A stretch of DNA of 64,000 bases from Eubacteriales bacterium (GTDB lineage: Bacteria > Bacillota > Clostridia > Oscillospirales > CAG-272), in assembly GCA_045647805.1 (NCBI GenBank), contig JAZRMT010000146.1:24-64023 (forward strand), given 5' to 3'. A program made the position numbers and the translations under genes. This document shows, piece after piece, positions 714 through 45,240 of this stretch. Position 1 is the first letter of the stretch; every line of letters begins with the position of its first letter. Below the pieces are notes generated by a model. That model made no database searches. It worked only from the letters and a program-made list of their open reading frames with translations, and was not told where the DNA came from.

Positions 714-754
714 AAAATTACAATACACAGTAAATCCAAAGAGGAGATTTGTTT

Positions 755-16446: not shown

Positions 16447-16672
16447 GGGTACCTCCAAAATAGTATAAAAAAATTCCCTTCCGGGGGGAGACATTTCTGC
16501 CTTAAAATATTTGATATTATTTTATCATATATTTTTAAATTTGGCAAGACATTTTTAAAGTTTTTTTAATAAAAATATTGCAAAAAAAGAGAAAAGATGT
16601 TATACTAAAATAAATAAGTATATTTTTGCGGCGAAAGCCGATGAGATCTTCAAGAAAAGGCAGGTCAGGTTT

Positions 16673-19807: not shown

Positions 19808-19808
19808 C

Positions 19809-22396: not shown

Positions 22397-22425
22397 TTGA
22401 CTTTTTTTGTGGTTTGATATAAAAT
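22397..22425 (+). promoter_or_regulatory. Putative promoter of B1 (TTGACT-17 nt-TAAAAT)
   Basis: Hexamers at 22397-22402 and 22420-22425, about 50 nt upstream of the B1 start. Confidence 0.4.
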
Positions 22426-22476
22426 AATATAGTAATTTATTACAAAAATTTCTTTTTTTTGGAAGGAAGGCTACAC

Positions 22477-25400
22477 ATGGTTACGCAAAAAATCAAAACC
22501 GGCCTCATTGGACGTGCGAAGATCATAACGGCATCAATTGCGCTTATAGCGACGGTTATGCTGGTCTTTTCCATGTTCCTTTGGAGCGACACGCAAGCAG
22601 AGAACGGCTCGGACGTTCCCGTTACTTCTGCCGATCTTAATGCAGACGGGGTTCCGTACCTGCAGGTCATTGCTTGCAACCTTAACTACAAGGATTATCT
22701 TCACGTTGCTTACGGCGTGGACACTAACCTTGTCGGCGGTATGGACTTCGCTGAGATCAAAATGCTCTTCTGGAGCGAGCCTCAGAGCGAATATCTTCTC
22801 GGTACGCAGAAGTACGTTGGGGAGGTCAATGATCCCGAAGGAACTGCCATTATGGTTGGTGACGTTACATATGATGATTGCGCAGTATTCTTCTCGAGAG
22901 GAATTGCGGCAAAGGAGATAGGCGATACGCTCTATGCCAGAGCCTACGTTACAGACTCCGACGGTAATATCTATTATAGTAACGTGGTTAAGCACGGTGT
23001 TCTTGATTACGTTTATTCGAGATACCGTGATGCGGAGCTCGGTGGCAAAGTAACCGACGATCAGCTTTATCTCTATGATAATATACTTAGATACGGTGCG
23101 AGCGCACAGATCATGTTCGATTATAAGACCGATAGGCTTGTAACCTCTCACGGCGTCAGAATCGACGTTGTTGACGGTTATATGACCGACGGCTTTAACA
23201 GCGGAGCATACATTGTCGGTGACACTGTTACCTTCGTCGCCAATATGGAGAACGAGTACGGTCCGTTCCTCTATTGGAAGGATTCAAAGGGTAATACTGT
23301 ATCTCTGAATCAGTCATTCTCCGTTACGATTGATCAGAATTCTACTTCCGAGATCTACACTGCGGTTTATACCGGTGTTACCAAGGTTACGGTTGTTGGC
23401 GGAACTCTTGAGGGCGGTGAGACTTTCGGCTCCTTCCTTGTTGGCGATAACTTTACTCTTGTCGCAGAGGACAGAAGCAGTGAAAAGTTCGTGTTCAGCC
23501 ATTGGGAGGACGAAAAGGGTAATAACGTCGGCTCTTCCATGACGCTTACTCTTTCTGCAACCGAGAGTGATTCTAAGGTTTATACTTCGGTTTATTACGC
23601 TCCTTCTACCGTTACCGTTTCCGGCGGTACTCTTGATAACGGAAAGATCAGCTCTTCCTATGCATACGGTTCGGACTTCACTGTTACCGCTTCTGATAAG
23701 AGTGCGGAGCAGCTTGTATTCAAGCATTGGAGAGACGAGGCGGGCAACGTTCTCGGCACGGGTAATACCTATACCGCTACCGTTACCGAGTCGGGTGCGG
23801 ATATAACTGTGATCGCGGTTTACTACGCTCCCACTACCGTTAGTGTTACGGACGGTACCGTCAACGGCTCTGCATCTGTCAGCGTAGCATACGGCGATAG
23901 CTATACCCTTACCGCTAATGACAGAAGCGGCGAGAAGTACGTATTCAGCCATTGGGAGAACGGAAACGGCGACGTCGTTTCCTATGACGAGAGCCTTACT
24001 CTGACAAATGATAACGACGGTGCAAGCCTTTCTTATACTGCAGTTTATCACGCTCCCGCTACCGTCAGTGTTACGGGCGGTACCGTTAACGGCTCTGCAT
24101 CCTGTATCGTAGCATACGGTGAGAGCTACACGGTTGTTGCAGACGTTCCCGGCGGATATCTCTTCGACTATTGGACCAAGAACGGCGAGAAGGTTGATAA
24201 TGAAGAAACCTTTACTGCTGTCGCACAAGCCGGTGAGACGGTTTCCTACGTTGCTGTATTCAGAAACAACAGCGGAGCAGGCTTCGATTCTCTTTCCGGC
24301 GGAGCACTTACTGCGGGTACTCCCGTTGTATCCGACGGATATAACGTTACTCTTAGCGGCTCCTCGGATAACTTCGGTGCAGAGATAACTGCTAACCCCT
24401 CTGATTCTACCGACAACGTTTTAAGACTGAATGATGCTGATACCGCATTGGGAGGCGGCATAGCTGTTAACGTCCTTGGAGACGGTTCATTCTTAGTCTT
24501 CAAGACCGATATTTACTTCGATAGCTTCAGCACCAATACTGTGCTTCAGTTCCTCTTGGGAAGTGAGTATAAGATAAACTTTACTGCAGCTGAGTCTGCG
24601 GCTCTTAAGCTATACGACGAAAGCAAACAATCCGGATATCTCGACGTTTACTTACGTCCTGATACATGGTATGAAATAAAGATTGTTATTACCACCGAGA
24701 ACGGTGTTAACGGCAAGGCTCCCAGAGCGTTCGTTTACATTGATGACGTATGCGTTGCCGAGTCTTACAACGTAACCGAGACCGCTCTTTACGACTCGGT
24801 GACTATCTATGTGCTTGAGGGAACCACTGTTGATGTATATCTTGATGATATTGCGGCTTACAGAATGGATATGAGCGAAGAAGACGAGGACCAGATCATC
24901 GTTTCCAAGGTTATAGAGACTCCTAGCAGCTCGTCCTCCGACCGCTTCCAGAATGCGGAGATCCTTCTTGACGCAGAGGCTGTTGCGGCTCTCAAGGAAA
25001 TGGATGAGGCACTCTTCTCCGACAACGTTTATATGTGGGTTGCCAGACTTTACGATCCCGATTCCGGTGCCTTCTACTTCTCTGTCAGCGGTAGTGAGAA
25101 TTACGGCTACCTCGCTGATATTGAGACGACCTCTCAAGCATCCGGTGTTCTCAACAGCCTTGGTATAGGAACCCTTACCTCTCTTCTCAATGCAGAGCAG
25201 AAGGCTAAGCTTCTCTCCTGGGTACAGACTCTCCAGTCCAACCGTGACGGATATTACTATCATCCTCAGTGGGGAATTTCGATAGGCGACGCAAGACGTT
25301 CCAGAGACTATTCCTATTCAAGCGCTTCCTTCTCTGCCTCCGAATCTCTTGCTTTCAGACTATACAATGAGGCTAACTACCGACTTTCCGGCGGTTCCTC

Positions 25401-28400
25401 GGGAACCAAGGGCGTAACGATTTCTACCGCTTACGATAATTCCAAGACGGTAACTCTTACGGCTGCGGATTATAGACTTACCTCTCCTCTCGGTATTTCT
25501 GCTGCAGGTGCGGTGTCCAAGGTAATTCTTGCTTCCTCTACCTCCGGTGACTCTAACGTTCCCGTACATATGACAAGCGAGGAGGCATTCGTTGGATACA
25601 TAAACGGCAAGTGGAATTCCGGCTGTAAGGTTGCGGGTGTTCACGAAAGACACCTTTGCGACAACGAATGTATTCACGTTGCAGACGAAAACGATTCTTA
25701 CATGAAACTCGAAAACGGAAAGGTTAAGTTCATAAGAGGCCAGAGATGTACCTCCTGCCACGTTTGTAAGCATTCTCTCGGTCACTCCTACGGATTTGCT
25801 TCTGTCATCGGAACTCAGAACTCTCAGATCAAATCCCTCGGACTTGGCGACCTTCTCGTAATGTATTACTATGACGTTCAGGAGAACGTTCAGGCAAGTC
25901 TTCGCCATAAGGTTGAGCTTGCTTATACCGGTAACGACGGTGAGTACGCTTGGGGTGCTCTTTCCAACGTATCTCAGAAGGCAAAGGCTGATGCGGTTAC
26001 TACTATCACCGAAGAAGCTAAGGCTCTTGCAAAGTCGGATTACAATGCTGACAACTGTGCAGCGGGTTCGGACGTATTCTCCGATCTTGACGATGCAAAG
26101 AAGAACGAGCTTTACAGGATGGCACAGGCAAAGCTTACCTTTGTTGCGGATATAAATGCTAACGGAAGCACTATCTGGGCCGCTCTTTCTTCAGAGGAGA
26201 GGGCTGACCTCAAGAAGCAGAACCAGAACGGTATCTGGGAGGAAGAGGTAACCTACGGTACTATCTCCGGTCTTCTTAAGGCTTGCGGAACTCCCGGTGC
26301 TCACGGCTACGAATTCCTTTACGCCGAGGATGCTATTCAGTCTGCTATCGACTGTGCTTTGTTCTCGGTATATGACTTCACCGTTAAGAATGCTCAGGCG
26401 GTCGTATCTATCTACAACCCCTTCAACGCTATCAACGGTGTTATGGGTAATATCAGAAATTACGGCTCGGATAAGACTCTTGTAGACAAGTGCATGGTTC
26501 TTATCAGATCTCAGGCGGCAGAGCTTATCGAGAACACTACCGGTAAGCTTCGTGGTTACCTTCAGCCCGACGGCGGATTTTCTTACAACTACAACGGCTA
26601 TTGCGTGACCTCTCAGGGCCAGCCCGTTGCGATTTCCGGTTGGAACAACGGTATCGGTGAGGGTGACGTTAACGGTACTGCTCTTGCATTCGGTACAAGA
26701 TCCGCACTCCTTTCGGTAATGGGTGTTTCGGTTTCGGCTCCCTTCTCCGGCAATAACAATTATATTGTAGGCGGCTTCGACCTTAACGATGACGGCGACA
26801 AGACCGATGAGTACGACCTTGACGGTGACGGCATCTCCGAGACCTTCGAGGCAACCTGTACTCACAGCCAGCGCTTCCAGTACACGATCACTACCAAGGC
26901 CGAGATCGAGAAGGTTGACATTTTCGATTCCGCTTCAGCAGACGGAACTATCACCTTCGATAACGTGGATAGCTTCACCGGCGGCACGGTAGTTACCGAG
27001 ACCGGCTCTACCAACAAGGTCCTTGAGGTGGTTGACTCCTCCTCTTCGAGCGGTAAGAGCGTATACATAGACAGCTCTGCTGCAGAATCCAGTGATAAAA
27101 ACACATGCGAAGTATCCTTCAGAATGAAGGTGATTGCGTCCAATGCTACGACCAGCCATCAGATATTCCTTGACGGTTCCTCATCCACCACCCTCAGGAT
27201 AGATTTGATATACAGCAACAGTGGCAAGTTTACCTTCAAAAACGTTGCAGCTTCCGGTTCGGCTATGCTCATGGATAAGGACTCCACGAGTACCGAGCTC
27301 AGCGTTAATGCTACCGAGTGGTTCGAGGTTGATATAGTTGTTGACTACGCGGGATTTGACGTAGGCGGTACTACCTACTACGGAACCTTCGAGGTTACTC
27401 AGGGCGGCGTTACCAAGACTGCTTATCTCCACGACCTCTCCTCTACGAGCACTGTTACCGAAATGCGTCTTTACTCCTTGAACGGCGCTGTTAACACGGT
27501 ATGGTACGATGATATCAAGGTAGTAAGCAACGTCATGGCGAATGTTTCCGACGGTGAATATCACTTTGATACCACATCTCAGCAGATGGCAGGCGATGAT
27601 GTTCTCATACAGAACCCCACGACCGGCTCTTATGACAAGGTTTACCTGCTTAACGGAGGTAATACCGCCTTTGCGGCATATAACTATTCGGTTGACGATT
27701 ACGCAACGAACAACGTAAGATACAACTTCAACTCCGTTCAGCTTGGTCTCCTTCTCAAGGATGCCAAGGCGGGCGATAGGATCGACCTTGCAATGCTTGA
27801 TGCAAGTGGCAAGAAGATCACCGGAATTTATCTCGTTGTAAGTGAGTACAATGGCAACAAGCTCGTTACCTTCCACGCTCCCAACGGTGAGATTCTTGAG
27901 GAGTCTATCCCGAGAACGATTACCGCCGCTGACGGTACTGTATCTACTACGGCTCAGCTTCGTGAGATGATCCTCGATGTAAACATGGCTAAGTGGATGA
28001 CTATCAAGCTTGAGTATCACTACGATATGGCTGATCCTCAGTTCGATATTGTTGTAAGATACGGCGATGATACGAAGGACGGCTACTATACCGCTACCGC
28101 TGCCTGCCTTACCGGTGTTGACATTTGCGATACCGGTGCAGATGCCTTCAACTTTGCTAACCTTTCCATAAAGGCATCCGGAAAGATCTATATTGACGAT
28201 CTTTACATCAGAAACGTATACGATGCCTGCGACGGTGAGCACGTATACATCAAGAAGGCAACTAAGGCATTCCTTACCGGTGATACCGAGAACGGTCACG
28301 ACGTATACTACTACTCCTGCCAGAAGTGCGGAGCAAAGAGCGAACAGACCTTCGTTGTTCACCAATTCGAAAGAGTTGTTGCGGATGAATACAAGGTATC

Positions 28401-30126
28401 CGACGCATCCATTTACAGTGCGGCTATTTATAAGGAGTCATGCTCTGTATGTAAAGCAATTTCCGAATCTACCTTCACATACGGTTATCCTCTCGACGAT
28501 CCCTCGAAGCATAACTTCAGCAATAAGGACGAAGAGGGTAACATAACCAAGGACGAGATTATCCCGGACTATCTCACCTATAGCACAGGCGCAGGCAAAT
28601 GGGCTACGGTTCTTGAGGAGAAAGTAGGCGATGTTGTTAACTACTACCTGAATGTTGGTAAGGAAAACGCATCCGGAACCAACGCACTTACCTTCGGATA
28701 CGTTCCCGAAAGCGGCGAGGAGATCGCGGATAAGTACATCTACGAGTTTGACTTCAGATGGCAGAGCGCTGATCATCACGTTAGCGAAATACTCTACGTC
28801 AAGGCGGGTGTATATAACCCCAAGAAGACTGAAAAATCCACTTCCGGTACCTTCACCGCAAGCAAGGCGGGCGATTACGTATCCTATAACGGAGTTATTT
28901 TCTACACCGACGAATGGCACGCGATGAAGTATCTCTATTCGAGAAATTCCACCGATGACGGTTGGAATGCTACCGTATTTATCGACGGCAGACAGGTTCA
29001 GACATTCTCGATTATTGGCGATGGAATACCTTACGTTGACTACGAGACCAGATGGCCGAGAACGCAAAATAATACTTCTTATCCCAATAACGTTAACTTC
29101 GACATTGACAGACTTAAGGCTACCGCGGTTGCCACCAAGGGACACGAGCTTATCGAGCTTGTTGATTCGAGGTATCTTGCCTCCGGTGCGACCTGCGAAA
29201 AACCCACTACCTACTACAAGTCGTGTAAGTGGTGCGGTGAGGCTTCCGAAGAGACCTTCACAAGGGGAAACGTTTCCGGTCACAGCTTTGCAAACGTGCT
29301 TGAAGATAAGTATCTTGAGAGTGTAGCCGACTGTACAAATGCTGCGGTTTATTACAAGTCCTGTCAGATCTGCGGTGAAGCCTCCGATGAGACCTTTGTA
29401 TTCGGTGAAGCGCTCGGACATTCCGACGTAAAGACCGTTGTGACTGCGGCAACCAAGGAAACGGCAGAGGTATGCTACTTCACCTGTACCGTGTGCGGAC
29501 GTAAGACCGATAATCAGATCAACGGTGATCCTCTTTCCTGGACCTTTGATACCGATGCTATGCCTAGTGAGGGTATTTCCATCGGAGGATTTAAGGCGGG
29601 TGAGGATGTTCCGGAGACCGGTCTTTGGGCAAGAGTTCTCGAGGAAGAGGTTAGTGGCGTGACTAACTATTACCTTAACATCGGTAAGAAGGACAGCGGA
29701 GGTACTCACAACTTAACCTTCACTCCGGAGCTTGCTGATGGAGTAACGAAGGTTACGTATGAGATGAAGGTAAGATGGAACAGTGCAGATACGAAAAACG
29801 ACTCCGCAGTGCTCATCAAATTCATAAATCCCGATTATAATGGTTCCGAGGGATATATGCGCTGTGATATGATGAAAACCGGTTCGTCAAATACGAATAG
29901 GGCAACGCTCTATGGTGATACTTATTCTGCCGGTGTATGGAATACGCTCAGATATGAATTTACCATTAACGCTGACGGTTCGGTAACCTGCAATGCGTAT
30001 TTCAATGATAAAACAACCGAAACGTTTACGCTCACTCATATGTTCACAAAGCTTGTATTTGAGACCAGATATACCTTCAAGCAGCTAAATCTTGACGTAG
30101 ATAATATTTATATCGCTTACGAATAA
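22477..30126 (+). CDS. Giant secreted or signal-anchored protein B1 of the paralogous family. It has tandem beta-repeats, LamG-like modules, the conserved core with a Cys/His-rich insertion, DxDxDG loops and Cys3His repeat modules.
   Basis: ATG at 22477 follows GGAAGG. The N-terminal hydrophobic segment is IITASIALIATVMLVFSMFLW..TQA. Core motifs are LYDPDSGAFYFSVSGSENYGYLADIETTSQ, LQSNRDGYYYHPQWG..RRSRD, DGGFSY..SQGQPVA and GEGDVNGT. There is no LPXTG motif at the C-terminus. Confidence 0.93.
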   Translation: MVTQKIKTGLIGRAKIITASIALIATVMLVFSMFLWSDTQAENGSDVPVTSADLNADGVPYLQVIACNLNYKDYLHVAYGVDTNLVGGMDFAEIKMLFWSEPQSEYLLGTQKYVGEVNDPEGTAIMVGDVTYDDCAVFFSRGIAAKEIGDTLYARAYVTDSDGNIYYSNVVKHGVLDYVYSRYRDAELGGKVTDDQLYLYDNILRYGASAQIMFDYKTDRLVTSHGVRIDVVDGYMTDGFNSGAYIVGDTVTFVANMENEYGPFLYWKDSKGNTVSLNQSFSVTIDQNSTSEIYTAVYTGVTKVTVVGGTLEGGETFGSFLVGDNFTLVAEDRSSEKFVFSHWEDEKGNNVGSSMTLTLSATESDSKVYTSVYYAPSTVTVSGGTLDNGKISSSYAYGSDFTVTASDKSAEQLVFKHWRDEAGNVLGTGNTYTATVTESGADITVIAVYYAPTTVSVTDGTVNGSASVSVAYGDSYTLTANDRSGEKYVFSHWENGNGDVVSYDESLTLTNDNDGASLSYTAVYHAPATVSVTGGTVNGSASCIVAYGESYTVVADVPGGYLFDYWTKNGEKVDNEETFTAVAQAGETVSYVAVFRNNSGAGFDSLSGGALTAGTPVVSDGYNVTLSGSSDNFGAEITANPSDSTDNVLRLNDADTALGGGIAVNVLGDGSFLVFKTDIYFDSFSTNTVLQFLLGSEYKINFTAAESAALKLYDESKQSGYLDVYLRPDTWYEIKIVITTENGVNGKAPRAFVYIDDVCVAESYNVTETALYDSVTIYVLEGTTVDVYLDDIAAYRMDMSEEDEDQIIVSKVIETPSSSSSDRFQNAEILLDAEAVAALKEMDEALFSDNVYMWVARLYDPDSGAFYFSVSGSENYGYLADIETTSQASGVLNSLGIGTLTSLLNAEQKAKLLSWVQTLQSNRDGYYYHPQWGISIGDARRSRDYSYSSASFSASESLAFRLYNEANYRLSGGSSGTKGVTISTAYDNSKTVTLTAADYRLTSPLGISAAGAVSKVILASSTSGDSNVPVHMTSEEAFVGYINGKWNSGCKVAGVHERHLCDNECIHVADENDSYMKLENGKVKFIRGQRCTSCHVCKHSLGHSYGFASVIGTQNSQIKSLGLGDLLVMYYYDVQENVQASLRHKVELAYTGNDGEYAWGALSNVSQKAKADAVTTITEEAKALAKSDYNADNCAAGSDVFSDLDDAKKNELYRMAQAKLTFVADINANGSTIWAALSSEERADLKKQNQNGIWEEEVTYGTISGLLKACGTPGAHGYEFLYAEDAIQSAIDCALFSVYDFTVKNAQAVVSIYNPFNAINGVMGNIRNYGSDKTLVDKCMVLIRSQAAELIENTTGKLRGYLQPDGGFSYNYNGYCVTSQGQPVAISGWNNGIGEGDVNGTALAFGTRSALLSVMGVSVSAPFSGNNNYIVGGFDLNDDGDKTDEYDLDGDGISETFEATCTHSQRFQYTITTKAEIEKVDIFDSASADGTITFDNVDSFTGGTVVTETGSTNKVLEVVDSSSSSGKSVYIDSSAAESSDKNTCEVSFRMKVIASNATTSHQIFLDGSSSTTLRIDLIYSNSGKFTFKNVAASGSAMLMDKDSTSTELSVNATEWFEVDIVVDYAGFDVGGTTYYGTFEVTQGGVTKTAYLHDLSSTSTVTEMRLYSLNGAVNTVWYDDIKVVSNVMANVSDGEYHFDTTSQQMAGDDVLIQNPTTGSYDKVYLLNGGNTAFAAYNYSVDDYATNNVRYNFNSVQLGLLLKDAKAGDRIDLAMLDASGKKITGIYLVVSEYNGNKLVTFHAPNGEILEESIPRTITAADGTVSTTAQLREMILDVNMAKWMTIKLEYHYDMADPQFDIVVRYGDDTKDGYYTATAACLTGVDICDTGADAFNFANLSIKASGKIYIDDLYIRNVYDACDGEHVYIKKATKAFLTGDTENGHDVYYYSCQKCGAKSEQTFVVHQFERVVADEYKVSDASIYSAAIYKESCSVCKAISESTFTYGYPLDDPSKHNFSNKDEEGNITKDEIIPDYLTYSTGAGKWATVLEEKVGDVVNYYLNVGKENASGTNALTFGYVPESGEEIADKYIYEFDFRWQSADHHVSEILYVKAGVYNPKKTEKSTSGTFTASKAGDYVSYNGVIFYTDEWHAMKYLYSRNSTDDGWNATVFIDGRQVQTFSIIGDGIPYVDYETRWPRTQNNTSYPNNVNFDIDRLKATAVATKGHELIELVDSRYLASGATCEKPTTYYKSCKWCGEASEETFTRGNVSGHSFANVLEDKYLESVADCTNAAVYYKSCQICGEASDETFVFGEALGHSDVKTVVTAATKETAEVCYFTCTVCGRKTDNQINGDPLSWTFDTDAMPSEGISIGGFKAGEDVPETGLWARVLEEEVSGVTNYYLNIGKKDSGGTHNLTFTPELADGVTKVTYEMKVRWNSADTKNDSAVLIKFINPDYNGSEGYMRCDMMKTGSSNTNRATLYGDTYSAGVWNTLRYEFTINADGSVTCNAYFNDKTTETFTLTHMFTKLVFETRYTFKQLNLDVDNIYIAYE
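23149..24261 (+). repeat. About five to six tandem protein repeats of roughly 75 aa inside B1, resembling Listeria-Bacteroides (Flg_new-type) beta repeats
   Basis: The recurring pattern is V.V.GG..NG......YG...T..A.......F.HW....GN.V......T......D....AVY. B2 has only about one such unit. Confidence 0.7.
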
Positions 30127-30166
30127 GAATTTGGCTGATAAGAATTTTGCAAAATATCTTTTTCAC

Positions 30167-30197
30167 GGCTCGGGCGAGAAATCGCCCGAGCTTTTTG
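30167..30197 (+). terminator. Rho-independent terminator of B1
   Basis: GGCTCGGGCGA pairs with TCGCCCGAGC and is followed by TTTTT. Confidence 0.85.
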
Positions 30198-30290
30198 TAT
30201 ATTTTTTATAAAAATTAACTTTTTCTATTGCAAAATAATGGTATATATATTAAAATAAAGATACTAAACAGTAAAAAGGGGCAAATACCT

Positions 30291-33200
30291 ATGGTTATAT
30301 CGACTTTGAATTGGAAAGGGCGATGCCGAACGCTGATTACTGCTATTACAGTACTTATGTTGGCGGTAATTATGGTGTTTATGCTTTCGGTGAACGCTAA
30401 GGCGGAGTCTTCCGAGGATTTGGACGGTTCGAAGTCTGAATCGACATCCTTGGAGGAGGCAGTTCTTGATATTTTCGCCTCTAATTTAAGCTACGACGCA
30501 TCGGTTCATATTATTTTTGCGGTCGATGCACAGCTTCCCGAGGGAGTGGCTCTTTCTGATGTAAAAATGCTCTTTTCTGCAACCGAGGGGGCAGATCTTA
30601 ACGTAGACAATGCCGATTATTCGGTAGGAGTCTGTTCTGCCTTTGGCTCGTCCTTGACGGTGGGCGGAGTTCTTTACGATAATGCGGTGATTTTCAGAAG
30701 CAATGGGATTTCTCCCGAAAAATACGGTGACACCGTTTTTTCCAGAGCGGCTGTCAGTGATGCCGAGGGGAACGTTTTTTACAGTGAGACCGTAAAATTC
30801 GGCGTTCTTGATTACGTTTATTCGAGATACCGTGATAAGGATATCGGTACGGGAGTTACCGACGAGCAGATGGAGCTTTACAAGGCTCTTCTTGAATACG
30901 GTGCAGATGCTCAGCTTGCCAATGAGTACAGAGAGGACAGACTTGTGACCTCTCACGGAATAAGGGTAGAGACCGAGAACGGAATTCTTGAGGACGGATT
31001 CAGCTACGGTACCTTCCTTCTCGGAGACACCGTCGCCCTAACTCCCCACCTTTCGTCTTATAAGGCGGGATTTGGTTCCTGGAATAATTCTTCGGGCGTT
31101 GCTTCTACCGAGCGTAATTTCAGCTTTACCGTCACGGAGAGCAGCGTGAGCGATACCTATTATGCTTCTTATCTTAAGGCAAGTTTTGACGGACTTAGTG
31201 TCGGGGCGGTACCCGTAGGCTCGGAAAATCCCTTATCCGACGGTGGTTTTTCGATGTCCGTGGACGGTGTGACCGAGCTGTTCGGCGCAGAGATAGTAGA
31301 ATATACTGACGGAAACAAGGTTCTTAAGCTTTGCGATAACGATTCGAATTACGGAGATGGCGTAAGGATCGAGGTTCAGGGAAGCGGTGATTATCTTGTT
31401 CTCGGTCTTGACGTTTACCTTGAGGAGTTTTCGACCGGAACGCCACTTCAGCTAAAGCTCGGCGGATATATGCTTCAATTTGGTGCTATTGAGGATGAGG
31501 CACTCAAAATATATGACGTTGGCTCGGCTACGGGATATCTTGATAAATATCTAAGAGCCGGAAAATGGTATAATCTCAGGCTCGTTATTGCGGATGTCTC
31601 CTCCGAGGAAGGAAGGAGAGCATATCTCTTCATTGACGGAGAGTGCGTGGCTAAGAGCTTGAATATTTCCGAATCGGAGATATCTGACAGCCTTCTTATA
31701 TACGGACTTAAATCCTCTACGGTTAATGCTTACTTTGATAATATTGAGCTTTACAGAACCGGTATTCCTGAGGAGATAGAGACCGCCTTCGCTCCCGAAA
31801 GGGTGTTCGAGGTAACTCAATCTGCTTCAAACGACCGTTTCCAGAATGCCGAGATACTTCTTGATGAAGACGCACTGCTGGCACTTAAGGAAATGGATGC
31901 TCAGCTCTTCTCAGAGGATATTTATCTCTGGATAGCCAATCTGTACGATCCCGAGACCTCGGCACTCTACTTCTCAATAAGCGGAAGGGATGCCTACGGA
32001 TATTTACCCGATATTGAGACGGTTTCACAGGGCTACGGAATTCTTTCCACCCTCGGACTAGGAGGTAATACCGCGGTTCTTAATGATGAGCAGAAGGCAA
32101 ATCTGACTGCATGGATACAAACTCTTCAGTCTAACCGTGACGGCTACTATTATCATCCACATTGGGGCGTTTCTATCGGTAATTCCAGACTTTCGAGAGA
32201 CCTTGGCAACTCCTCCAGCTCATATTCGGCATCGGGAAGCCTTGCATACCGACTTTTTGACGATGCTAACTACCGACTTTCGGGTGGAAGCTCGGGATAC
32301 AAGGGTACAACCACCCCTTCTACTTATGACAACAGTCTGACAAGTAGGCTGAGAAGGTCGGCTGTCGTTGCGGTTTCCAAGGTGCTTCTCACCTCGGAAA
32401 ATAATAATTCCTCAATGCCCGTTCATCTTCGCAGTGAGGAAAACCTTATCAGGTACCTTAACGAATATTGGAACAGTACTTGTGCGGTTGAGGGTACTCA
32501 CGAAAGACACTTTTGCACGGACGACTGCGTTATTTTTGAGGATCCCTCGGATTCATATATGAAGATAGAGGATGGCGAGCTTGTGATATTCCGCGGTTAT
32601 CGCTGTACCTCCTGCCACGTTTGCAGTCATACCTTGGGACACTCCTACTCCTTTGGACATCACTTTACCAGTATGGGCGCTCAGGTAAGATCGGCAGGGC
32701 TCGGTACACCTCTTGTTATGTACTTCCGTGATATTCAGGAGAACGTTCAGGCATCGCTTAGAGATAAGGCACAGGCGGCTTATATAGAAGAATACGGCAA
32801 GGATGCGTGGGATGCGCTTTGCACAGAGGAGCAGACGGCGATCCGCAAGGCTGCGGAGAACGGCATCTGGGAGGAAGAGGTCACATATGGCACTATCTCG
32901 GGACTTCTTAAGATCTCGGGAATTCCCGGTGCTCACGGCTATGAGTTCCTTTATGCTGAGGCGGCAATAGGCAGTGCTCTCAAGTGTGCTCTTTTCACCG
33001 TTGAAAACTTTGTAAGCACCGGTCAGGCAATCGTTTCAATTTATAATCCATTCAATGCCATGAACGGTATTATGAATAACGTAAATAATTACGGCACCGA
33101 TAAGGAAGTGCAAACCAGAGCGAGAGCTCTTATCCGCAGTCATGCAGAGGAGCTTATCGTAAATACTATGGGTAAGCTTGAGGGATATCTTATGCCCGAC

Positions 33201-36200
33201 GGAGGGTATTCCTACAATTACTCGGGTTACTGTGCTAATTCTCAGGGACAGCCTGTTGCTATTGAAGGCTCGAGGGAGGGCGACGTTAACGGAACTGCTC
33301 TTGCGCTGGGAACGAGAAGCGCGCTTCTGTCCTGTCTCGGCGTATCGGTATCTGCACCCTTCGGAAGTGTTGATGCTGAGATCGAGGGTGGCTTCGACCT
33401 TAACGGTGACGGAGATACAGAGGATGAATTTGACCTTAACGGTGACGGTGTTGCAGATGCTTTTGAGACAGGCTGTACTCATAATATGCGTTTTCGCTAC
33501 ATCATTACTAATAAGGGCGAGATAGAGAAGCTCGACCACACTGCGCAAAAATACGTTTACTCATTCGATGAGGGAACGCTTATTCCTAATGGCGGTGAGG
33601 TGATCGAAGAGGACGGCAACAAGGTATTCAAGGTGGTTGACAACTCGGGAGACGGTGGACATTCTGTTACCTTCAACTCGAACAGTATTATTGACGAGGA
33701 CAGAAATATCAGAATGACACTTGATATGAAGGTCATCTCCAGTAACAATACTATCTCTCATCAGATATTCGTTGATTCCGGCGTGCTCAGGATAGATATG
33801 AATTATAAAAACGGCAAGTTTACATTTAAAAATGTAACTCAAACCTATAACGATCTTGTTGATGAGTCGGGAGCTGCATTGTCGATAAATGCAAACCAGT
33901 GGTTTACAATTGATGTAGATGTTCGTCCTGAAGGAATAGAAGTCAATGGGGAAACCGTGTACGGATATTTTACGGTGAAGCAGGGGGATGCAGCTCAGAC
34001 GGCAATTCTTACCGAGCTTGCGGGTTACAACAAGAATGCGATGGCTTTCCGTATGTATTCGCTTATAAGTGCGAAGAACGTGGTCTACTACGATAACGTT
34101 TCGATATCTAACGGGGTTAAGCCCGGTGTGCATGACGGCGAATATCATTTCGATACGGTTGAACAGAAGATAGCCGACGAAAACACTCTTGTTAAGTCTC
34201 CTACCTTTGATCACGATACCGTATATCTTCTCAACTCGGGCAGTGTCGATTTTGCCGCCTACGATTACAATACGTCTGCGGTAATTTACAACTTTGACAG
34301 TGTTCAGGCAAATCTTTTGCTTTCGGATGCCAACATGGGAGATAGAGTTGATCTCATTCTCCTTGACGGAGAGGGAAGAGCGATCACGGGTGCTTATCTT
34401 ATCGTGACGGATGAAGGCGAGCTCAGCTTCTTTGCACCTAACGGTCAGCTGCTTACAGAGCGTATTCCGAGAGAAGAGATCTACGCGGGCGGTAGCTCTG
34501 CAAGGGTGACGAAAGAACGAGATATGGTTCTTTCTGTCGATCTTTCTGATTGGATACTTGTCAAGCTTGAGTATCATCACGATATGGAATCTCCCCAGCT
34601 TGATATAGTTATTAAATATGCCGATAATCTTAAGAAAGGCTACAAGACGACTACTGCGGCGACACTTACCGGTGTTGACGTGTTGGATATAGGAGCGGAT
34701 CCTTACGATTTCTCGACGCTTAATGTGAATTCTGTCGGAAGGATTTATCTTGACGACCTATATATAAGAAACGTGTTCGACGGTTGCAGCGGAGAGCATG
34801 AATTTATAGAGAAGATCGCCTCAAGCAATCTTAAGGGGATTGATTCCTTCGGACACAAGGAGTATTACCTTTCCTGCCGTAATTGCGGTCACAAGAGTAC
34901 GGAGATCTTTGTCATTCACTCTTACGAGAGAATTGTTAAGGATAGCTTCAAGCTTTCCGATGCAAGTATCAGCAGTGCGGCTGTTTACGGTGAATCCTGC
35001 AGTATGTGCGGTGAGTTCTCAGGTAAGACCTTCCTTTACGGTCTGCCTCTTGAGGATCCCACCAAATACAACTTTACCGATGCCGACGGAGCAGAGTCGG
35101 AAATACCCAATTATCTCAGCATCGTTACCGGTAAGGGAAAGACTGCAACGGTGATGAGCGAGACGATTGATGGCGTTGTAAATTACTACTTAAGATTGGC
35201 AAAGAAAAAAGGCGAGTCATCCCATTCTGCGACCTTCCGTTATCAGCGAGAATCCGGGGAAGCTCTTGCGGATAAGTATGTTTACGAATTCGATTTCAGA
35301 TGGATCGGTGCATCCGATATGATGAATAACCGTCAGGTAATTCTCGTTAAGATGGCCGCGGGCGGAAGTTCGGTTTGCCCTAATTCCTATATTGCCGATT
35401 CGACAGGTACAACGGTCTCCTACGCAGGAGTAAACATGCATTCGGGCGAGTGGCACGCAATGAAGTATCTATTTGTGAGAAATGAGACGAACAACGGCTG
35501 GAACGGTACCGCCTTCTGCGACGGCAAGAAGCTCTACACCTTCAATGTATCAGGCAACGACGTTCCATACGTTGATTACGAGACAAGATGGACTCTTAAG
35601 GAGAACGGAGTTACCAAGCATTCCGACCTCGAGCTTGATATGGATAGGCTTAAGGTTACTGCCGTAGCCGAGAAGGGACACGTCTTCGCTGAGACTGTTA
35701 CCGAAAGCAATCTTATCTCTGAGGCTAACTGCCTATCTCCTGCGGTATACGGTAAGATCTGTACCTTATGCGGAGAGATATCCGATACCGAGACCTTCAC
35801 GGTAGGGGAGAAGGGAGCTCACGACTTCGGTAACGTTATTGCGGATAAGTTTAAGGTATGCGATGCCGATTGCGATACGGCGGTGACCTATTACCGATCT
35901 TGCAAGGTTTGTAACGAGACGACCGATCAGCTCTTCACTGTCGGAGAGCCTCTCGGACACAGCCTGACAAAGTATACCGTTTCCGAGGCGACGAAATACG
36001 CAGCGGAGATTTGCTACTTTGAGTGCGATAGCTGCGATTATGCTACCGAGCCCGCCTCCTATGGAGACCCTCTTGGCTGTATATTCGGAGCGGATAAGGC
36101 TCTTCCGGCAACGGTGAGTGTTGAAGGCTTCACAAGTGAGCCTCTCACCGAGGGAATCTGGGCTTCGGTGCTTTCTGAACAGGTCGGTGAGGTGACGAAT

Positions 36201-36710
36201 TATTATCTGAACGTTCAGAAAAAATCGAATACGTCTACACATGATCTGACCTTTGCTTCAACCGAGGCGGGTGGACAAAGCTATGTTTACGAATTCGATT
36301 TCAGGTGGCATTACTCAGATAGAATGAGGGGATCTGTTCCGATTATTGTGAAGCTGAAGCAGGGGGCAAGTGAGAGAAAGTCCATAAGCCTTACTGCAAA
36401 GGCTGACGGAAGCGAGCTTTATCACAACGGAGTAACCTTTAAGTCGGGCGAGTGGCACACCGTAAGATACGAGTTTACAAAGAAAGCCGACGGTACGGGG
36501 TGGGATTGCGTGCTCAGCATCGACGGCACCCGTGTCTTGAGCGAGGGCTTTACGGGTACAGAAGCGGTACCTAAGGTGGTCTATGAGACCAGATACGGCC
36601 AGTATCAGGAAGTAGATACCGACGGAGACGGTGTAAATGACTCCAAGGAGATCAAGAACTGCACCGATATAAGTTTCGATATTGATAACGTATATATAAA
36701 GAAAGACTGA
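30291..36710 (+). CDS. Giant secreted protein B2, paralogue of B1
   Basis: ATG at 30291 follows AAAAGGGG. The signal peptide is TLITAITVLMLAVIMVFMLSVNAKA-ES. It is collinear with B1 but has fewer beta repeats. Core motifs are LYDPETSALYFSISGRDAYGYLPDIETVSQ, LQSNRDGYYYHPHWG..RLSRD, DGGYSY..SQGQPVA and REGDVNGT. Confidence 0.93.
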   Translation: MVISTLNWKGRCRTLITAITVLMLAVIMVFMLSVNAKAESSEDLDGSKSESTSLEEAVLDIFASNLSYDASVHIIFAVDAQLPEGVALSDVKMLFSATEGADLNVDNADYSVGVCSAFGSSLTVGGVLYDNAVIFRSNGISPEKYGDTVFSRAAVSDAEGNVFYSETVKFGVLDYVYSRYRDKDIGTGVTDEQMELYKALLEYGADAQLANEYREDRLVTSHGIRVETENGILEDGFSYGTFLLGDTVALTPHLSSYKAGFGSWNNSSGVASTERNFSFTVTESSVSDTYYASYLKASFDGLSVGAVPVGSENPLSDGGFSMSVDGVTELFGAEIVEYTDGNKVLKLCDNDSNYGDGVRIEVQGSGDYLVLGLDVYLEEFSTGTPLQLKLGGYMLQFGAIEDEALKIYDVGSATGYLDKYLRAGKWYNLRLVIADVSSEEGRRAYLFIDGECVAKSLNISESEISDSLLIYGLKSSTVNAYFDNIELYRTGIPEEIETAFAPERVFEVTQSASNDRFQNAEILLDEDALLALKEMDAQLFSEDIYLWIANLYDPETSALYFSISGRDAYGYLPDIETVSQGYGILSTLGLGGNTAVLNDEQKANLTAWIQTLQSNRDGYYYHPHWGVSIGNSRLSRDLGNSSSSYSASGSLAYRLFDDANYRLSGGSSGYKGTTTPSTYDNSLTSRLRRSAVVAVSKVLLTSENNNSSMPVHLRSEENLIRYLNEYWNSTCAVEGTHERHFCTDDCVIFEDPSDSYMKIEDGELVIFRGYRCTSCHVCSHTLGHSYSFGHHFTSMGAQVRSAGLGTPLVMYFRDIQENVQASLRDKAQAAYIEEYGKDAWDALCTEEQTAIRKAAENGIWEEEVTYGTISGLLKISGIPGAHGYEFLYAEAAIGSALKCALFTVENFVSTGQAIVSIYNPFNAMNGIMNNVNNYGTDKEVQTRARALIRSHAEELIVNTMGKLEGYLMPDGGYSYNYSGYCANSQGQPVAIEGSREGDVNGTALALGTRSALLSCLGVSVSAPFGSVDAEIEGGFDLNGDGDTEDEFDLNGDGVADAFETGCTHNMRFRYIITNKGEIEKLDHTAQKYVYSFDEGTLIPNGGEVIEEDGNKVFKVVDNSGDGGHSVTFNSNSIIDEDRNIRMTLDMKVISSNNTISHQIFVDSGVLRIDMNYKNGKFTFKNVTQTYNDLVDESGAALSINANQWFTIDVDVRPEGIEVNGETVYGYFTVKQGDAAQTAILTELAGYNKNAMAFRMYSLISAKNVVYYDNVSISNGVKPGVHDGEYHFDTVEQKIADENTLVKSPTFDHDTVYLLNSGSVDFAAYDYNTSAVIYNFDSVQANLLLSDANMGDRVDLILLDGEGRAITGAYLIVTDEGELSFFAPNGQLLTERIPREEIYAGGSSARVTKERDMVLSVDLSDWILVKLEYHHDMESPQLDIVIKYADNLKKGYKTTTAATLTGVDVLDIGADPYDFSTLNVNSVGRIYLDDLYIRNVFDGCSGEHEFIEKIASSNLKGIDSFGHKEYYLSCRNCGHKSTEIFVIHSYERIVKDSFKLSDASISSAAVYGESCSMCGEFSGKTFLYGLPLEDPTKYNFTDADGAESEIPNYLSIVTGKGKTATVMSETIDGVVNYYLRLAKKKGESSHSATFRYQRESGEALADKYVYEFDFRWIGASDMMNNRQVILVKMAAGGSSVCPNSYIADSTGTTVSYAGVNMHSGEWHAMKYLFVRNETNNGWNGTAFCDGKKLYTFNVSGNDVPYVDYETRWTLKENGVTKHSDLELDMDRLKVTAVAEKGHVFAETVTESNLISEANCLSPAVYGKICTLCGEISDTETFTVGEKGAHDFGNVIADKFKVCDADCDTAVTYYRSCKVCNETTDQLFTVGEPLGHSLTKYTVSEATKYAAEICYFECDSCDYATEPASYGDPLGCIFGADKALPATVSVEGFTSEPLTEGIWASVLSEQVGEVTNYYLNVQKKSNTSTHDLTFASTEAGGQSYVYEFDFRWHYSDRMRGSVPIIVKLKQGASERKSISLTAKADGSELYHNGVTFKSGEWHTVRYEFTKKADGTGWDCVLSIDGTRVLSEGFTGTEAVPKVVYETRYGQYQEVDTDGDGVNDSKEIKNCTDISFDIDNVYIKKD

Positions 36711-36719
36711 TTTTGGCTA

Positions 36720-36756
36720 AATGCGGCTTGGATTTTACCGAGCCGCATTTTTTTCT
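36720..36756 (+). terminator. Rho-independent terminator of B2
   Basis: ATGCGGCT pairs with AGCCGCAT and is followed by TTTTTTT. Confidence 0.8.
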
Positions 36757-36792: not shown

Positions 36793-36821
36793 TTGACAAA
36801 ATCCACGCCGTATGATACAAT
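36793..36821 (+). promoter_or_regulatory. Promoter of the met leader (TTGACA-17 nt-TACAAT)
   Basis: TTGACA at 36793-36798 and TACAAT at 36816-36821. Confidence 0.6.
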
Positions 36822-36827
36822 TTATTC

Positions 36828-37090
36828 AAAGCAATGACGAAGAGGGAACCGAAGGAATACTCAAAGAGAGCCGCGGCAGGTGAGAGGCGGCAGTAGGGTG
36901 TCGGATTCTTATGGCTTCCGAGCAGGTCGGGCGAACGCTTTTGCGATAGGTCGGCACGCAGGCGCAGCGTTATCGGCGCAGGGCTTAGTATGAGCCTCGG
37001 AGTGGCACATTGTTTGTGCAAATTGAGTGGTACCGCGGATGTGTTTTGTCATTCGTCTCATTTCTTGGGACGGGTGGCTTTTTTTGTTTT
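36828..37090 (+). promoter_or_regulatory. T-box leader (tRNA-sensing riboswitch), probably methionine-specific, with a terminator
   Basis: Stem I elements are AGAGAG (36865-36870), GGTGAGA (36879-36885) and CAGTA. A candidate AUG specifier lies at 36911-36913 (UUCUUAUGGC). The conserved T-box sequence AAATTGAGTGGTACCGCGG is at 37020-37038. A terminator hairpin, GTCATTCGTC pairing with GACGGGTGGC by GU-containing pairs, is followed by TTTTTTT. The element sits upstream of metY-metA. Confidence 0.75.
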
Positions 37091-37218
37091 TGCAAAGAAT
37101 GCAAAATATGCAATTAGGTTCGCAATACCCTTGAATATGTAAATAATTGTTAGAAATAACGAACAAAATAACACCAAAACAAATAGCAAATCATCTTTCG
37201 AAAAGGAGTTTAATAAAA

Positions 37219-38499
37219 ATGAGCAAGACAAGAATTGAGACTAAATGCGTCCAGGGCGGCTATACCCCCGGCAACGGTGAGCCAAGACAGATCCCGATTA
37301 TACAGTCCACCACATTCAAATACGGAACAAGCGAGGATATGGGTAAGCTCTTCGATCTTGAGGCATCGGGATACTTCTATTCCAGACTTCAGAATCCTAC
37401 CTGCGACACCGTTGCGGCAAGAATTTGCGAGCTTGAGGGCGGTACTGCGGCAATGCTTACATCTTCGGGCCAGGCGGCAAACTTCTTTGCGGTATTCAAT
37501 ATTGCCTCTAACGGTGATCACGTTGTTTCCTCCAGTGCTATTTACGGCGGAACCTATAATCTCTTTGCTGTTACTATGAAGAGAATGGGCGTTGAGTTTA
37601 CCTTTGTTTCTCCCGACGCTACCGAGGAGGAAATAAGAGCGGCAATAAGACCTAACACCAAGGCTGTTTTCGGTGAGACTATTGCAAACCCTGCACTTAC
37701 CGTTCTTGATATCGAGAGATTTGCCAAGGTTGCTCACGAGGCGGGTGTTCCTCTTATCATCGACAACACCTTTGCTACTCCCATTAACTGCCGTCCCTTC
37801 GAGTGGGGTGCGGATATCGTTACCCATTCAACCACCAAGTATATGGACGGTCACGGAAGTGCGGTTGGCGGATGTATCGTTGATTCCGGTAAATTCGATT
37901 GGAAGGCTTCGGGCAAGTTCGATTGCCTTTGCACACCGGACGAGAGCTATCACGGAGTAAATTATTACGAGAGATTCGGTCTTGCAGGTGCCTTTATCAC
38001 CAAGGCTACCGCTCAGCTTATGCGTGATTTCGGCTGTACTCAGTCTCCCCAGTCTGCATTCCTTCTCGGACTAGGTCTTGAGTCGCTTCACGTTCGTATG
38101 GAACGCCATTGCGAGAACGGTCTTGCAGTTGCCAAGTTCCTTAAGTCTCATCCCGCTGTCACCTGGGTAAAGTATCCCTCTCTTGAAGGTGACAAGTACT
38201 ATGATCTTACACAGAAGTATATGCCTAAGGGCAGCTGCGGCGTTGTTTCCTTCGGAGTTAAGGGTGGTCGTGCTGCTGCCGAGAAGTTCATGAAGAATAT
38301 GAAGCTCGGTGCTATCGAAACTCACGTTGCCGATGCAAGAACCTGTTGTCTGCACCCTGCAAGTGCAACTCACCGTCAGATGAATGATGAGGAGCTTCTT
38401 GCGGCAGGTGTTTCTCCCGATCTTATCCGTTATTCCTGCGGAATTGAGTCTGCCGAGGATCTTATAGAGGATCTTAAGCAGGCGCTTGAATCGATCTGA
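37219..38499 (+). CDS. metY: O-acetylhomoserine sulfhydrylase (aminocarboxypropyltransferase), PLP-dependent
   Basis: ATG at 37219 follows AAGGAG. Cys/Met-metabolism PLP enzyme pattern, with the lysine in [16 protein letters not shown]. Confidence 0.9.
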
Positions 38500-38545
38500 T
38501 CGATTCTGCTTATTGAATGATAAAATAAATCAGCGAGGTAATATC

Positions 38546-39472
38546 ATGCCCATTAAAATACCAAACGAGCTTCCCGCCGTAAAAACTCTTGAAAACGAAA
38601 ATATATTCGTAATGACGGAGAGTAGGGCTATTAAGCAGGATATTCGTCCACTAAAAATTCTTATCCTCAATCTTATGCCCACTAAGGTGGATACCGAGAC
38701 TCAGCTTTCGAGGCTTCTCGGTAATACACCCTTGCAGGTGGAGATAGAGCTTATACACACCAAGACACATCAGTCCAAGAACACCTCCGAGGAGCATCTT
38801 CTTGCATTTTACAAGGTATTCGACGACGTAAAGGAGAACTACTACGACGGTATGATAATTACCGGCGCTCCCGTCGAGAAAATGGAGTTTGAGGAGGTGG
38901 ACTACTGGAATGAGCTATGCGAGATAATGGAATGGTCTAAGTCTCACGTTCAGAGTACTCTTCATATCTGTTGGGGAGCTCAGGCGGGACTCTACTATCA
39001 CTTCGGAATACAAAAATATCTTATGGATGAAAAGCTTTCGGGCGTTTATGCTCATAAGGTGGATTACAAAAAATCTATTCTGTTCAGAGGCTTTGACGAC
39101 GTGTTTTACGTTCCTCACTCCAGATATACTACCGTTAAGAGAGAGGAAATCGAGGCTGTAAAGGGCTTGAAGGTGCTTTCATCCTCCGAAAAGGCGGGTG
39201 TCTATACGGTATCTACCAAGGGCGGAAGACAAATCTTTGTTACCGGTCACTCGGAGTATGATGCCGATACTCTTAACAAGGAATACACCCGCGATAAGCT
39301 TGCGGGAATAAATCCTAAGATTCCCGAGCATTATTTCCCGAATGATGACGACACCAAGTCACCCGTGATCACCTGGAGAGGTCACGCAACTCTTCTGTTT
39401 ACCAACTGGCTTAACTACTTCGTATATCAAACCACTCCTTACGATATAATGAAAATTAAAGCTACTCAATAA
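38546..39472 (+). CDS. metA: Homoserine O-acyltransferase (MetA/HTS family)
   Basis: Starts [23 protein letters not shown]..., and ILNLMP, GAPVE and HICWGAQA are typical MetA motifs. The start is moved to ATG 38546. Confidence 0.9.
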
Positions 39473-45176: not shown

Positions 45177-45240
45177 AAAAATGAAATATTATTTTAAATA
45201 CGGACGTGATTATATATGCTCGAAAAGGATAGGTGCATTT

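Follow-up and report, generated by a model that had tools for sequence, protein, structure and literature searches.

Two adjacent genes, B1 and B2, in a 64,000-nucleotide stretch of contig JAZRMT010000146.1 (GenBank assembly GCA_045647805.1, Eubacteriales bacterium; positions 24 to 64,023, hereafter the window) encode giant proteins, which we propose to be exported multi-modular glycan-processing enzymes of an undescribed family, a reading to which we assign a probability of about 0.5. It is based on a central domain, referred to as the family core, which is far more conserved than the periphery and contains an invariant cluster of polar residues, on the existence of family members without signal peptide, on fusions of relatives to carbohydrate-type domains and on AraC-type regulators encoded next to relatives. 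Large multi-modular proteins that a gut Firmicute secretes to act on glycans or to bind them are, as a kind, familiar.

The longest open reading frames (ORFs) of the two genes lie in tandem on the + strand at 22459..30126 (B1) and 30228..36710 (B2). The first in-frame ATGs are located 7-9 bases 3' of the ribosome-binding sites and reproduce exactly the lengths of 2549 and 2139 amino acids (aa) given in a preliminary description of this DNA, which had been made from the sequence alone:

22477..30126, + strand: B1 gene, ORF of 2549 aa from the ATG after the ribosome-binding site GGAAGGAAGG
30291..36710, + strand: B2 gene, ORF of 2139 aa from the ATG after the ribosome-binding site AAAGGGG

The two proteins are collinear, as first described, with three BLASTP blocks of 38-48% identity. 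The difference in length is made up of four additional repeats in B1, a helical stretch of about 75 residues in the B1 core, and small indels.

The family core

The core comprises about 500 aa and is common to four other large proteins of the window, encoded at 749..5029, 40201..44946, 45181..50043 and 50155..54999. This bears out the initial view of B1 and B2 as modular paralogues that carry a family core inside a more elaborate architecture. The core and an insert within it were placed as follows:

24955..26763, + strand: family core of B1 (aa 827-1429), common to the A-type proteins and X1 of the window
31848..33380, + strand: family core of B2 (aa 520-1030), from an AlphaFold2 model
25612..25785, + strand: 6-Cys/5-His insert of the B1 core (aa 1046-1103), from the alignment
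32469..32642, + strand: 6-Cys/5-His insert of the B2 core (aa 727-784), modelled as a beta-hairpin with a predicted local distance difference test score (pLDDT) of 47-65

Over 59 diverse family members, 20 alignment columns are invariant and 33 are nearly invariant, mostly occupied by polar or aromatic residues. The invariant residues are, in B2 numbering, W547, E576, G589, Q613, G618, Y621, H622, W625, R633, R636, D637, Y786, G858, Y866, K874, N919, K962, Y975, E996 and D998; B1 keeps all 20, and 14 of these positions are also invariant in 24 other long members. Among the orthologues of B2, the core is 81-91% identical, as compared with 41-67% for the N-domain, the B-repeat and the beta-sandwiches described below.

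An AlphaFold2 model of B2 aa 480-1100, calculated with 59 sequences (mean pLDDT 75.7, predicted template modelling score 0.76), is all-alpha with about 13 long helices, most of the helical blocks having a pLDDT above 90. It is interrupted by a disordered stretch at B2 aa 649-706 and by a low-confidence hairpin in the Cys/His insert. When the model was compared with the PDB using Foldseek, about 20 of the top 50 rows, all of them sub-significant, were alpha/alpha toroid enzymes: squalene-hopene cyclases, one of which held the top row, other terpene synthases, cellobiose 2-epimerase, glycoside hydrolases (GH) of families 105, 76 and 127, and a polysaccharide lyase (PL). The model thus gives a hint of a toroid-like core fold, without membership of those toroid families.

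At the sequence level, the core had no match in Pfam, NCBIfam or PDB sequences. Searches of PDB sequences with B1 alone and with a profile of 59 core sequences (E up to 10 for the profile) gave nothing relevant, and a Pfam scan of the 59 sequences at E up to 1 returned noise only, including Prenyltrans (two members, E 0.12) and TED_complement (one member, E 0.066). Scans of B1, B2, A1 and X1 against Pfam and NCBIfam yielded as sole matches Flg_new_2 in B1 and Laminin_G_3 in X1. None of the family members examined carries a name, their sources giving no more than "hypothetical protein", and we found nothing relevant in the literature on the core motifs, giant Clostridial proteins or the InlB B-repeat / Flg_new module.

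The preliminary description had noted that the segment following an HPQWG motif is longer in B1 and B2 than in the A-type proteins and harbors a Cys/His cluster. This segment is real and specific to the B subfamily: the 6-Cys/5-His insert, with the pattern W-N-S-x-C...T-H-E-R-H-x-C-x3-C...R-C-T-S-C-H-x-C-x-H-x3-H, was seen in 17 of the 263 family members inspected, each of them of the B type. The motif itself is not shared to the letter, as B2 reads HPHWG. The insert may be a module with two metal sites. The three A-type copies in the window have a 4-Cys insert of their own (ICVCKGLY...C...WC) in the first core loop, which is not found in B1, B2 or X1.

Secretion and the modules around the core

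Both proteins begin with a predicted type-I signal peptide, closely followed by an N-terminal domain (N-domain) that is conserved between them:

22477..22599, + strand: signal peptide of B1 (aa 1-41), predicted cleavage TQA/EN, read from the sequence
30291..30404, + strand: signal peptide of B2 (aa 1-38), predicted cleavage AKA/ES, read from the sequence
22660..23154, + strand: N-domain of B1 (aa 62-226), 230.7 bits against a hidden Markov model (HMM) of B-type N-domains
30465..30959, + strand: N-domain of B2 (aa 59-223), 208.8 bits against the N-domain HMM

AxA-type signal peptidase I sites, with E or A as the next residue in the orthologues, are present in B1, B2 and all orthologues, which speaks for the predicted secretion of both proteins. 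The N-domain motifs pointed out earlier occupy aa 69-82 and 175-185 in B1, and B2 has them at the corresponding positions. No match to the N-domain was found in Pfam, NCBIfam or PDB sequences. Matches of the N-domain HMM are confined to proteins with a type-I signal peptide and always start about 5-25 residues from the cleavage site. They extend to about 16 secreted proteins of 410-690 aa (L019:9906-12041, L014:105-1763 and about 14 others) that lack the core, contain sandwich-like regions and adjoin family genes in related metagenome-assembled genomes (MAGs); by clustering, core-less proteins of this kind comprise 29 ORFs in 25 loci, about 16 of which are those matched by the HMM.

The family members without N-domain that we looked at (X1, A1-A3, and P0255-P0260, which are short relatives of the B type) carry lipoboxes. 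B1 and B2 have no lipobox (L-x-x-C) cysteine and display AxA sites instead. This distribution suggests that the N-domain may be an alternative means of holding the protein at the cell surface, in place of a lipid anchor. The lack of a C-terminal anchor, already pointed out in the preliminary description, would be explained if the N-domain retained the protein there: no LPXTG-type motif occurs near the C-terminus of B1 or B2, both of which end in a LamG-like module, and no SLH, Dockerin_1 or CW_binding domain was detected in either protein by Pfam at E up to 0.1. The four core paralogues of the window (749-5029, 40201-44946, 45181-50043 and 50155-54999, all on the + strand) have lipoprotein signals (LFSC, FTAC, LPSC) followed by about 100 acidic residues of low complexity, e.g. 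DDKDDGNT or DDPDGG.

Between the N-domain and the core lie repeats of the InlB type (B-repeats) and a module related to concanavalin A (ConA)- and LamG-like sandwiches:

23152..24264, + strand: five InlB-type B-repeats of B1 (aa 226-596), from Pfam PF18998 and a repeat HMM
30960..31172, + strand: single B-repeat of B2 (aa 224-294), 27.4 bits against the HMM of the B1 repeats, not reported by Pfam
24286..24867, + strand: pre-core ConA/LamG-like module of B1 (aa 604-797), by hhalign
31188..31760, + strand: pre-core ConA/LamG-like module of B2 (aa 300-490), by hhalign

B1 matches Flg_new_2 (PF18998) with 31.5 bits (cut-off 23.6) in three stretches, and the repeat HMM finds five copies rather than the six or so proposed at first; the estimate of about one repeat in B2 was right. 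A recent expansion or contraction of the array, as had been assumed, is not supported by the data. Among themselves, the B1 repeats share only 25-52% identity, they form no detectable tandem repeat at the DNA level, and P0007, an orthologue of B1, likewise has five copies. The number of B-repeats differs among lineages (5, 3, 2 or 1), and judged by this divergence the changes in repeat number are old.

The part downstream of the core consists of calcium-loop-like motifs, beta-sandwiches (m1 to m4) and small Cys/His modules:

26779..26850, + strand: two DxDxDG loops of B1 (aa 1435 and 1447), by regular expression
33396..33467, + strand: two abutting DxDxDG loops of B2 (aa 1036 and 1048; loops 1036-1059), by regular expression
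26980..28224, + strand: beta-sandwiches m1 and m2 of B1 (aa 1502-1916), mapped from the B2 model
33588..34781, + strand: beta-sandwiches m1 and m2 of B2 (aa 1100-1497), from the AlphaFold2 model and Foldseek matches to LNS/LG and lectin folds
28225..29136, + strand: cassette 1 of B1, two Cys/His modules and LamG-like m3
29137..30123, + strand: cassette 2 of B1, three Cys3His modules and terminal LamG-like m4
34782..35672, + strand: cassette 1 of B2, two Cys/His modules (aa 1498-1604) and LamG-like m3 (aa 1605-1794)
35673..36707, + strand: cassette 2 of B2, three Cys3His modules (aa 1795-1940) and terminal LamG-like m4

The two DxDxDG loops following the core were thus found where they had been expected; B2 has a third one at aa 2109, inside m4. 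In the AlphaFold2 model of B2 aa 1090-2139 (mean pLDDT 79.2), four beta-sandwiches and five small hairpin modules are seen. Foldseek related this region to neurexin LNS2-6 (E 1.1e-11), laminin LG (1.8e-9) and legume lectins (about 1e-4), the E values for these and for lectin-like modules of glycosidases ranging from 1e-11 to 1e-4; galectin was matched as well, as were modules of the lectin type from GH101, sialidase and botulinum toxin. The pre-core module aligned with the C-terminal modules m1, m3 and m4 with an hhalign probability of 77-91%. The original designation of these modules as LamG-like is therefore supported by structure for the C-terminal half and by profile comparison. Pfam gave no match to Laminin_G_3 or related families in B1 and B2 at E up to 0.1; Laminin_G_3 was matched by the paralogue X1 (29.5 bits, cut-off 27.6) and by three of the 24 other long family members.

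The match between m3 and m4 (hhalign E 4e-49) clearly marks the two as duplicates. We conclude that a cassette, made up of Cys/His modules and then a LamG-like module, occurs twice at the C-terminus, the first copy having two Cys/His modules and the second three. The single string of Cys3His modules mentioned in the preliminary description accordingly resolves into two groups, each followed by its LamG-like module. The Cys3His character holds for three of the five: the canonical H...C-x(3 or 9)-C-x2-C is present in the last three only, and the first two have His or Ser in place of the first Cys. No described family in the libraries searched accounts for the Cys/His modules. The modular nature of the B-type C-terminus is also seen in a second homologue search, in which lipoprotein relatives ended at about B2 residue 1496, and others at about 1837.

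Orthologues, family expansion and genomic context

A homologue search with B2 identified four full-length orthologues (P0002-P0005) from Logan, ENA and NCBI assemblies, with 60-66% identity at 99% coverage, and the same search yielded P0007, an orthologue of B1 with 2557 aa. In GCA_965336555.1 (locus L001) a B1-like gene for 1833 aa and a B2-like gene for 2058 aa are arranged in the same order as in the window and have the same flanks, csoR-copA on one side and genes for a Cys/Met pyridoxal-phosphate enzyme and an HTS protein (metY/metA-like) on the other. Tandem repeats at the DNA level were not detectable within B1 or B2. The identity of the two genes to each other does not exceed about 70%, except for one 70-base stretch at 83%, and no high-identity DNA tracts connect B1, B2 and the other paralogues of the window. 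From the orthologues, the synteny, the lack of DNA repeats and the low identity of B1 to B2 we conclude that their duplication is old and that the ORFs are under selection; the domain-wise conservation is consistent with purifying selection.

These data also bear on the concern that the two giant ORFs are artefacts, i.e. chimeric fusions created by metagenome misassembly or decaying pseudogenes. A general caution applies to long repetitive genes in metagenome assemblies; beyond that, nothing was found in favor of this explanation. The frames are unbroken over 7.6 and 6.4 kb, there are no DNA repeats that could have misled the assembler, and the conservation pattern just mentioned likewise speaks against an artefact. 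Because the same architecture recurs on independent contigs, with orthologues from four other independent sources, and in one syntenic locus, B1 and B2 are not misassembled fusions, a possibility that the preliminary description had itself raised; we regard an artefact as next to inconceivable.

The word-indexed homologue search with full-length B2 gave only eight proteins, so that an exhaustive profile search was needed to obtain the true family size. Searching 1.84 billion representative proteins with the core profile, we retrieved 1321 clusters at E up to 1e-3 and 907 at 1e-30, the family clusters (about 1300) being defined at 50% identity. The members come in several forms: many of about 420 aa without signal peptide, tandem doubles of about 810 aa, lipoproteins of about 900-1100 aa, and giants. 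In related MAGs, core-only homologues of about 415-425 aa, again without signal peptide, form tandem sets of two to three genes directly downstream of giant genes; such sets are located at L004:5478-9251 and L002:8001-10685.

Scanning one genome per GTDB species revealed 302 loci encoding relatives. The best 73 loci all belong to MAGs of uncultured Clostridia, Eubacteriales, Oscillospiraceae or "Ruminococcus", with many loci per MAG, and those among the 73 whose titles name a source are from deer gut. Family members account for 141 of the 528 ORFs in these 73 loci and often stand in tandem. In one group of gut Clostridia the family has undergone massive expansion, with dozens of copies per genome. 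The preliminary description had missed both this expansion and the small forms of about 420 aa.

For the census of neighboring genes, Pfam was applied to the first 145 of 340 non-family ORFs and the rest were grouped by BLAST clustering. The sole strongly recurrent neighbor is an AraC-type regulator, found beside family genes in 33 of the 73 loci, with a divergent orientation in those examples that were inspected; these regulators consist of a cupin and an HTH_18 domain (L006:4339-5070, - strand, and 32 other loci). Genes of the GH20, GH2-like, ceramidase-like, GFO/IDH/MocA-like and GH1-like (recognized by sequence motifs only) types occur in 3-7 loci each. Among the 24 other long members, fusions to CE4 polysaccharide deacetylase (two), Polysacc_lyase (one), Alginate_lyase2 (one), 3-keto-disaccharide-hydrolase-like (three), Laminin_G_3 (three) and Flg_new_2 (two) domains were observed. 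Isolated fusions join the family to Redoxin/AhpC-TSA or Flg_new; the lipoproteins P0164, P0016 and P0166 are fused to a thioredoxin-like domain of the Redoxin/AhpC-TSA type, which may be linked to the extracellular Cys clusters of the A and B subfamilies.

As to expression, the preliminary description had ascribed to each gene its own promoter-like region and terminator. The following elements were found:

22397..22425, + strand: promoter-like site 5' of B1, TTGACT-17-TAAAAT, 10 of 12 consensus matches
30228..30256, + strand: promoter-like site 5' of B2, TTGCAA-17-TAAAAT, 9 of 12 consensus matches
30167..30192, + strand: terminator hairpin 3' of B1, 11-pair stem with 8 GC pairs, then a T run
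36719..36750, + strand: terminator hairpin 3' of B2, 13-pair stem, then a T run

The terminator part of the claim stands, as both hairpins are followed by a T run. Sites resembling sigma-70 promoters are no more common in the region than in its shuffled versions, so the two promoter-like sites are consensus matches and compatible with promoters of their own. Inverted repeats, looked for as a feature of phase variation, were absent around both promoter regions.

Directly upstream of B1, at 19514-22319 (+ strand), lie genes for a metal-sensing repressor similar to CsoR and for a heavy-metal P-type ATPase that resembles CopA and has two HMA domains. Downstream, the stretch that separates the B2 terminator from the metY-like (37147..38499) and metA-like (38486..39472) genes contains a candidate T-box leader at 36825-37063 (+ strand; Rfam RF00230, 84.1 bits, E 7.6e-19), which scores just below the gathering score of 93; a strong promoter-like site (36793-36821) goes with it, as does a terminator-like hairpin (37048-37078). 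At the gathering threshold, Rfam gave no match in the whole window. One AraC gene of the window (56969-57943, - strand) is located by rhamnose genes, two genes downstream of the third A-type copy, and is part of a rhamnose catabolism set (56969-60670) with an FGGY kinase and the L-rhamnose isomerase RhaA; a Na/Pi cotransporter gene alone separates this set from the last A-type gene. Elsewhere in the window, genes for a beta-lactamase-fold protein and a metallophosphoesterase flank an Eco57I/N6-type DNA methyltransferase-like gene (520 aa, 14932-16494, - strand), for which the called neighbors include no obvious restriction partner.

Possible function and comparison with known systems

If B1 and B2 process glycans, the lectin-like sandwiches would hold a polymeric carbohydrate, with the B-repeats and the probably zinc-stabilized Cys/His modules acting as rigid spacers and the DxDxDG loops presumably binding calcium. 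The core would cleave or modify the glycan by means of its conserved Glu/Asp/His/Arg/Lys/Tyr cluster, which in B2 would include E576, H622, R633, R636, D637, K874, N919, K962, E996 and D998. The N-domain, always found directly behind a type-I signal peptide, may hold the protein at the cell surface. Members of about 420 aa without signal peptide, encoded beside giants, might carry out this chemistry within the cell, on fragments that have been imported. Expression would probably be substrate-induced, given the AraC regulators flanking relatives.

Several observations weigh against this proposal. The core matches no known enzyme significantly, either by sequence or by fold, and its catalytic role is a prediction. 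In the Foldseek comparison of the core model with the PDB, the best match had an E value of 0.29, with template modelling scores of at most 0.35 and root-mean-square deviations above 14 angstroms; viral control structures (BFVD) reached the same E level, and no Foldseek match fell below E 0.28. Profile self-comparison disclosed no internal hairpin repeat in the core, the single apparent match being an overlap of the compared segments. The neighbors of family genes are mostly housekeeping genes, clusters of the polysaccharide-utilization type with transporters are absent among the related loci surveyed, and some of the fused "lyase" Pfam matches are ConA-like folds and may merely echo LamG similarity. 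B1 and B2 themselves, situated between the csoR-copA operon and the met operon, have no adjacent AraC gene, glycosidase or transporter.

Much of the architecture would also suit non-catalytic surface lectins or adhesins that bind host, plant or microbial surfaces, with the core as an extra binding or scaffold domain: five of the modules are ConA/LamG-like, Gram-positive surface proteins typically contain B-repeats, the proteins are large and exported, the family has many paralogues per genome, and no catalytic family was detected. Yet it is the core that is most conserved and not the periphery, the reverse of what is usual for adhesin tips, and the core also exists as small proteins without signal peptide, which cannot be adhesins. 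Considering also the lack of an LPXTG, SLH or other wall anchor and the fusions of relatives to CE4 and lyase-like domains, we find this interpretation unlikely. Still less probable in our view is that the core is an alpha/alpha toroid of the terpenoid-cyclase, prenyltransferase or thioester-domain kind for a non-carbohydrate substrate (lipid, isoprenoid or protein), e.g. a protease trap like the thioester domain of bacterial alpha-2-macroglobulin. A squalene-hopene cyclase was the top sub-significant Foldseek match, several terpene synthases came next, and the faint Pfam matches to Prenyltrans and TED_complement point the same way; moreover, motifs such as LQSNRDGYYYHP and YLMPDGGYSY appear to resemble the Q-x-x-DGG-aromatic loops of the toroid superfamily. 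All these Foldseek and Pfam matches are, however, non-significant, the core has neither a DxDD motif nor a CGEQ thioester motif nor an invariant Cys, and the fusions and neighbors point to carbohydrates.

The size and secretion of the two proteins, together with the small related genes that stand in tandem beside giants in related genomes, could further be taken to indicate toxins or effectors of inter-bacterial competition, the small homologues nearby being immunity or accessory proteins. But these small proteins are homologous to the core itself and are not unrelated binders, and B1 and B2 have no such small neighbor in the window. Domains of the toxin, Rhs, RTX or secretion-system type were not detected, and a PADLOC scan of B1, B2 and A1 gave no matches. 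An effector function therefore appears very improbable to us. The probability left over by all these readings falls to explanations not listed here.

Returning to the glycan-processing proposal, the modules around the core are ordinary, and the libraries searched contained no family that matches the core, the N-domain or the Cys/His modules; the early caveat that all modules might map to described adhesin or enzyme families is thus not supported. A more far-reaching and tentative idea is that the core represents a new catalytic fold family, either a new carbohydrate-active family (glycoside hydrolase, lyase or isomerase) or an enzyme class outside carbohydrates, whose dozens of secreted, lipid-anchored and cytoplasmic paralogues per genome would be the main substrate-processing machinery of uncultured herbivore-gut Clostridia. 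The B subfamily would then add a Cys/His insert that binds metal next to the active site, and an N-domain that serves as a new surface-retention module in place of the lipid anchor. Should the core be an enzyme, it would define a family of considerable size that has no annotation at all and that, among the secreted proteins of these uncultured herbivore-gut Clostridia, is the most expanded one; its substrate would tell what these organisms feed on, and it might constitute a new enzyme family for the breakdown of plant or host glycans. If the core is non-catalytic, B1 and B2 would be further large surface proteins with mostly common lectin-like modules. The small forms without signal peptide offer an easier experimental entry than the giants.

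Among known systems, the GH101 endo-alpha-N-acetylgalactosaminidases SpGH101 and EngBF (PDB 3ecq, 5a55, 6qfo) are likewise very large and secreted and combine one conserved central domain with several lectin-like sandwiches; these PDB entries were among the Foldseek matches of the C-terminal half of B2 (E 2e-8 to 7e-6). In contrast to GH101, the central domain of B1 and B2 is all-helical in the model and matches no GH, PL or carbohydrate esterase (CE) family by sequence or fold. B1 and B2 also lack the LPXTG anchor of the pneumococcal GH101 enzyme. The (alpha/alpha)6 toroid enzymes (AGE-type epimerases, GH105/GH88, GH76, GH127, polysaccharide lyases and class II terpene cyclases) resemble the modelled core in being all-alpha with about 12-13 long helices and in having conserved polar residues at loop-helix junctions, whereas the B subfamily adds the 6-Cys/5-His insert, a linker predicted to be disordered, and extra helices.

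The peripheral modules have their own counterparts. The four C-terminal modules and the pre-core module share a fold or profile with ConA-like lectins and glucanases (LamG/LNS) but remain below Pfam thresholds. Like the InlB B-repeats / Flg_new_2 (PF18998) of Firmicutes surface proteins, the B1 array is a tandem near the N-terminus and has the appearance of spacer modules, although its copies have diverged strongly and the single copy of B2 was seen only by the B1-derived HMM. Finally, the adjacent pair of 12-residue DxDxDG / DxNxDG loops in B1 and B2 is similar to the calcium loops of dockerins and EF-hands; unlike in dockerins, the loops have no Pfam dockerin match, abut each other without the dockerin helices, and are situated in the middle of the protein.

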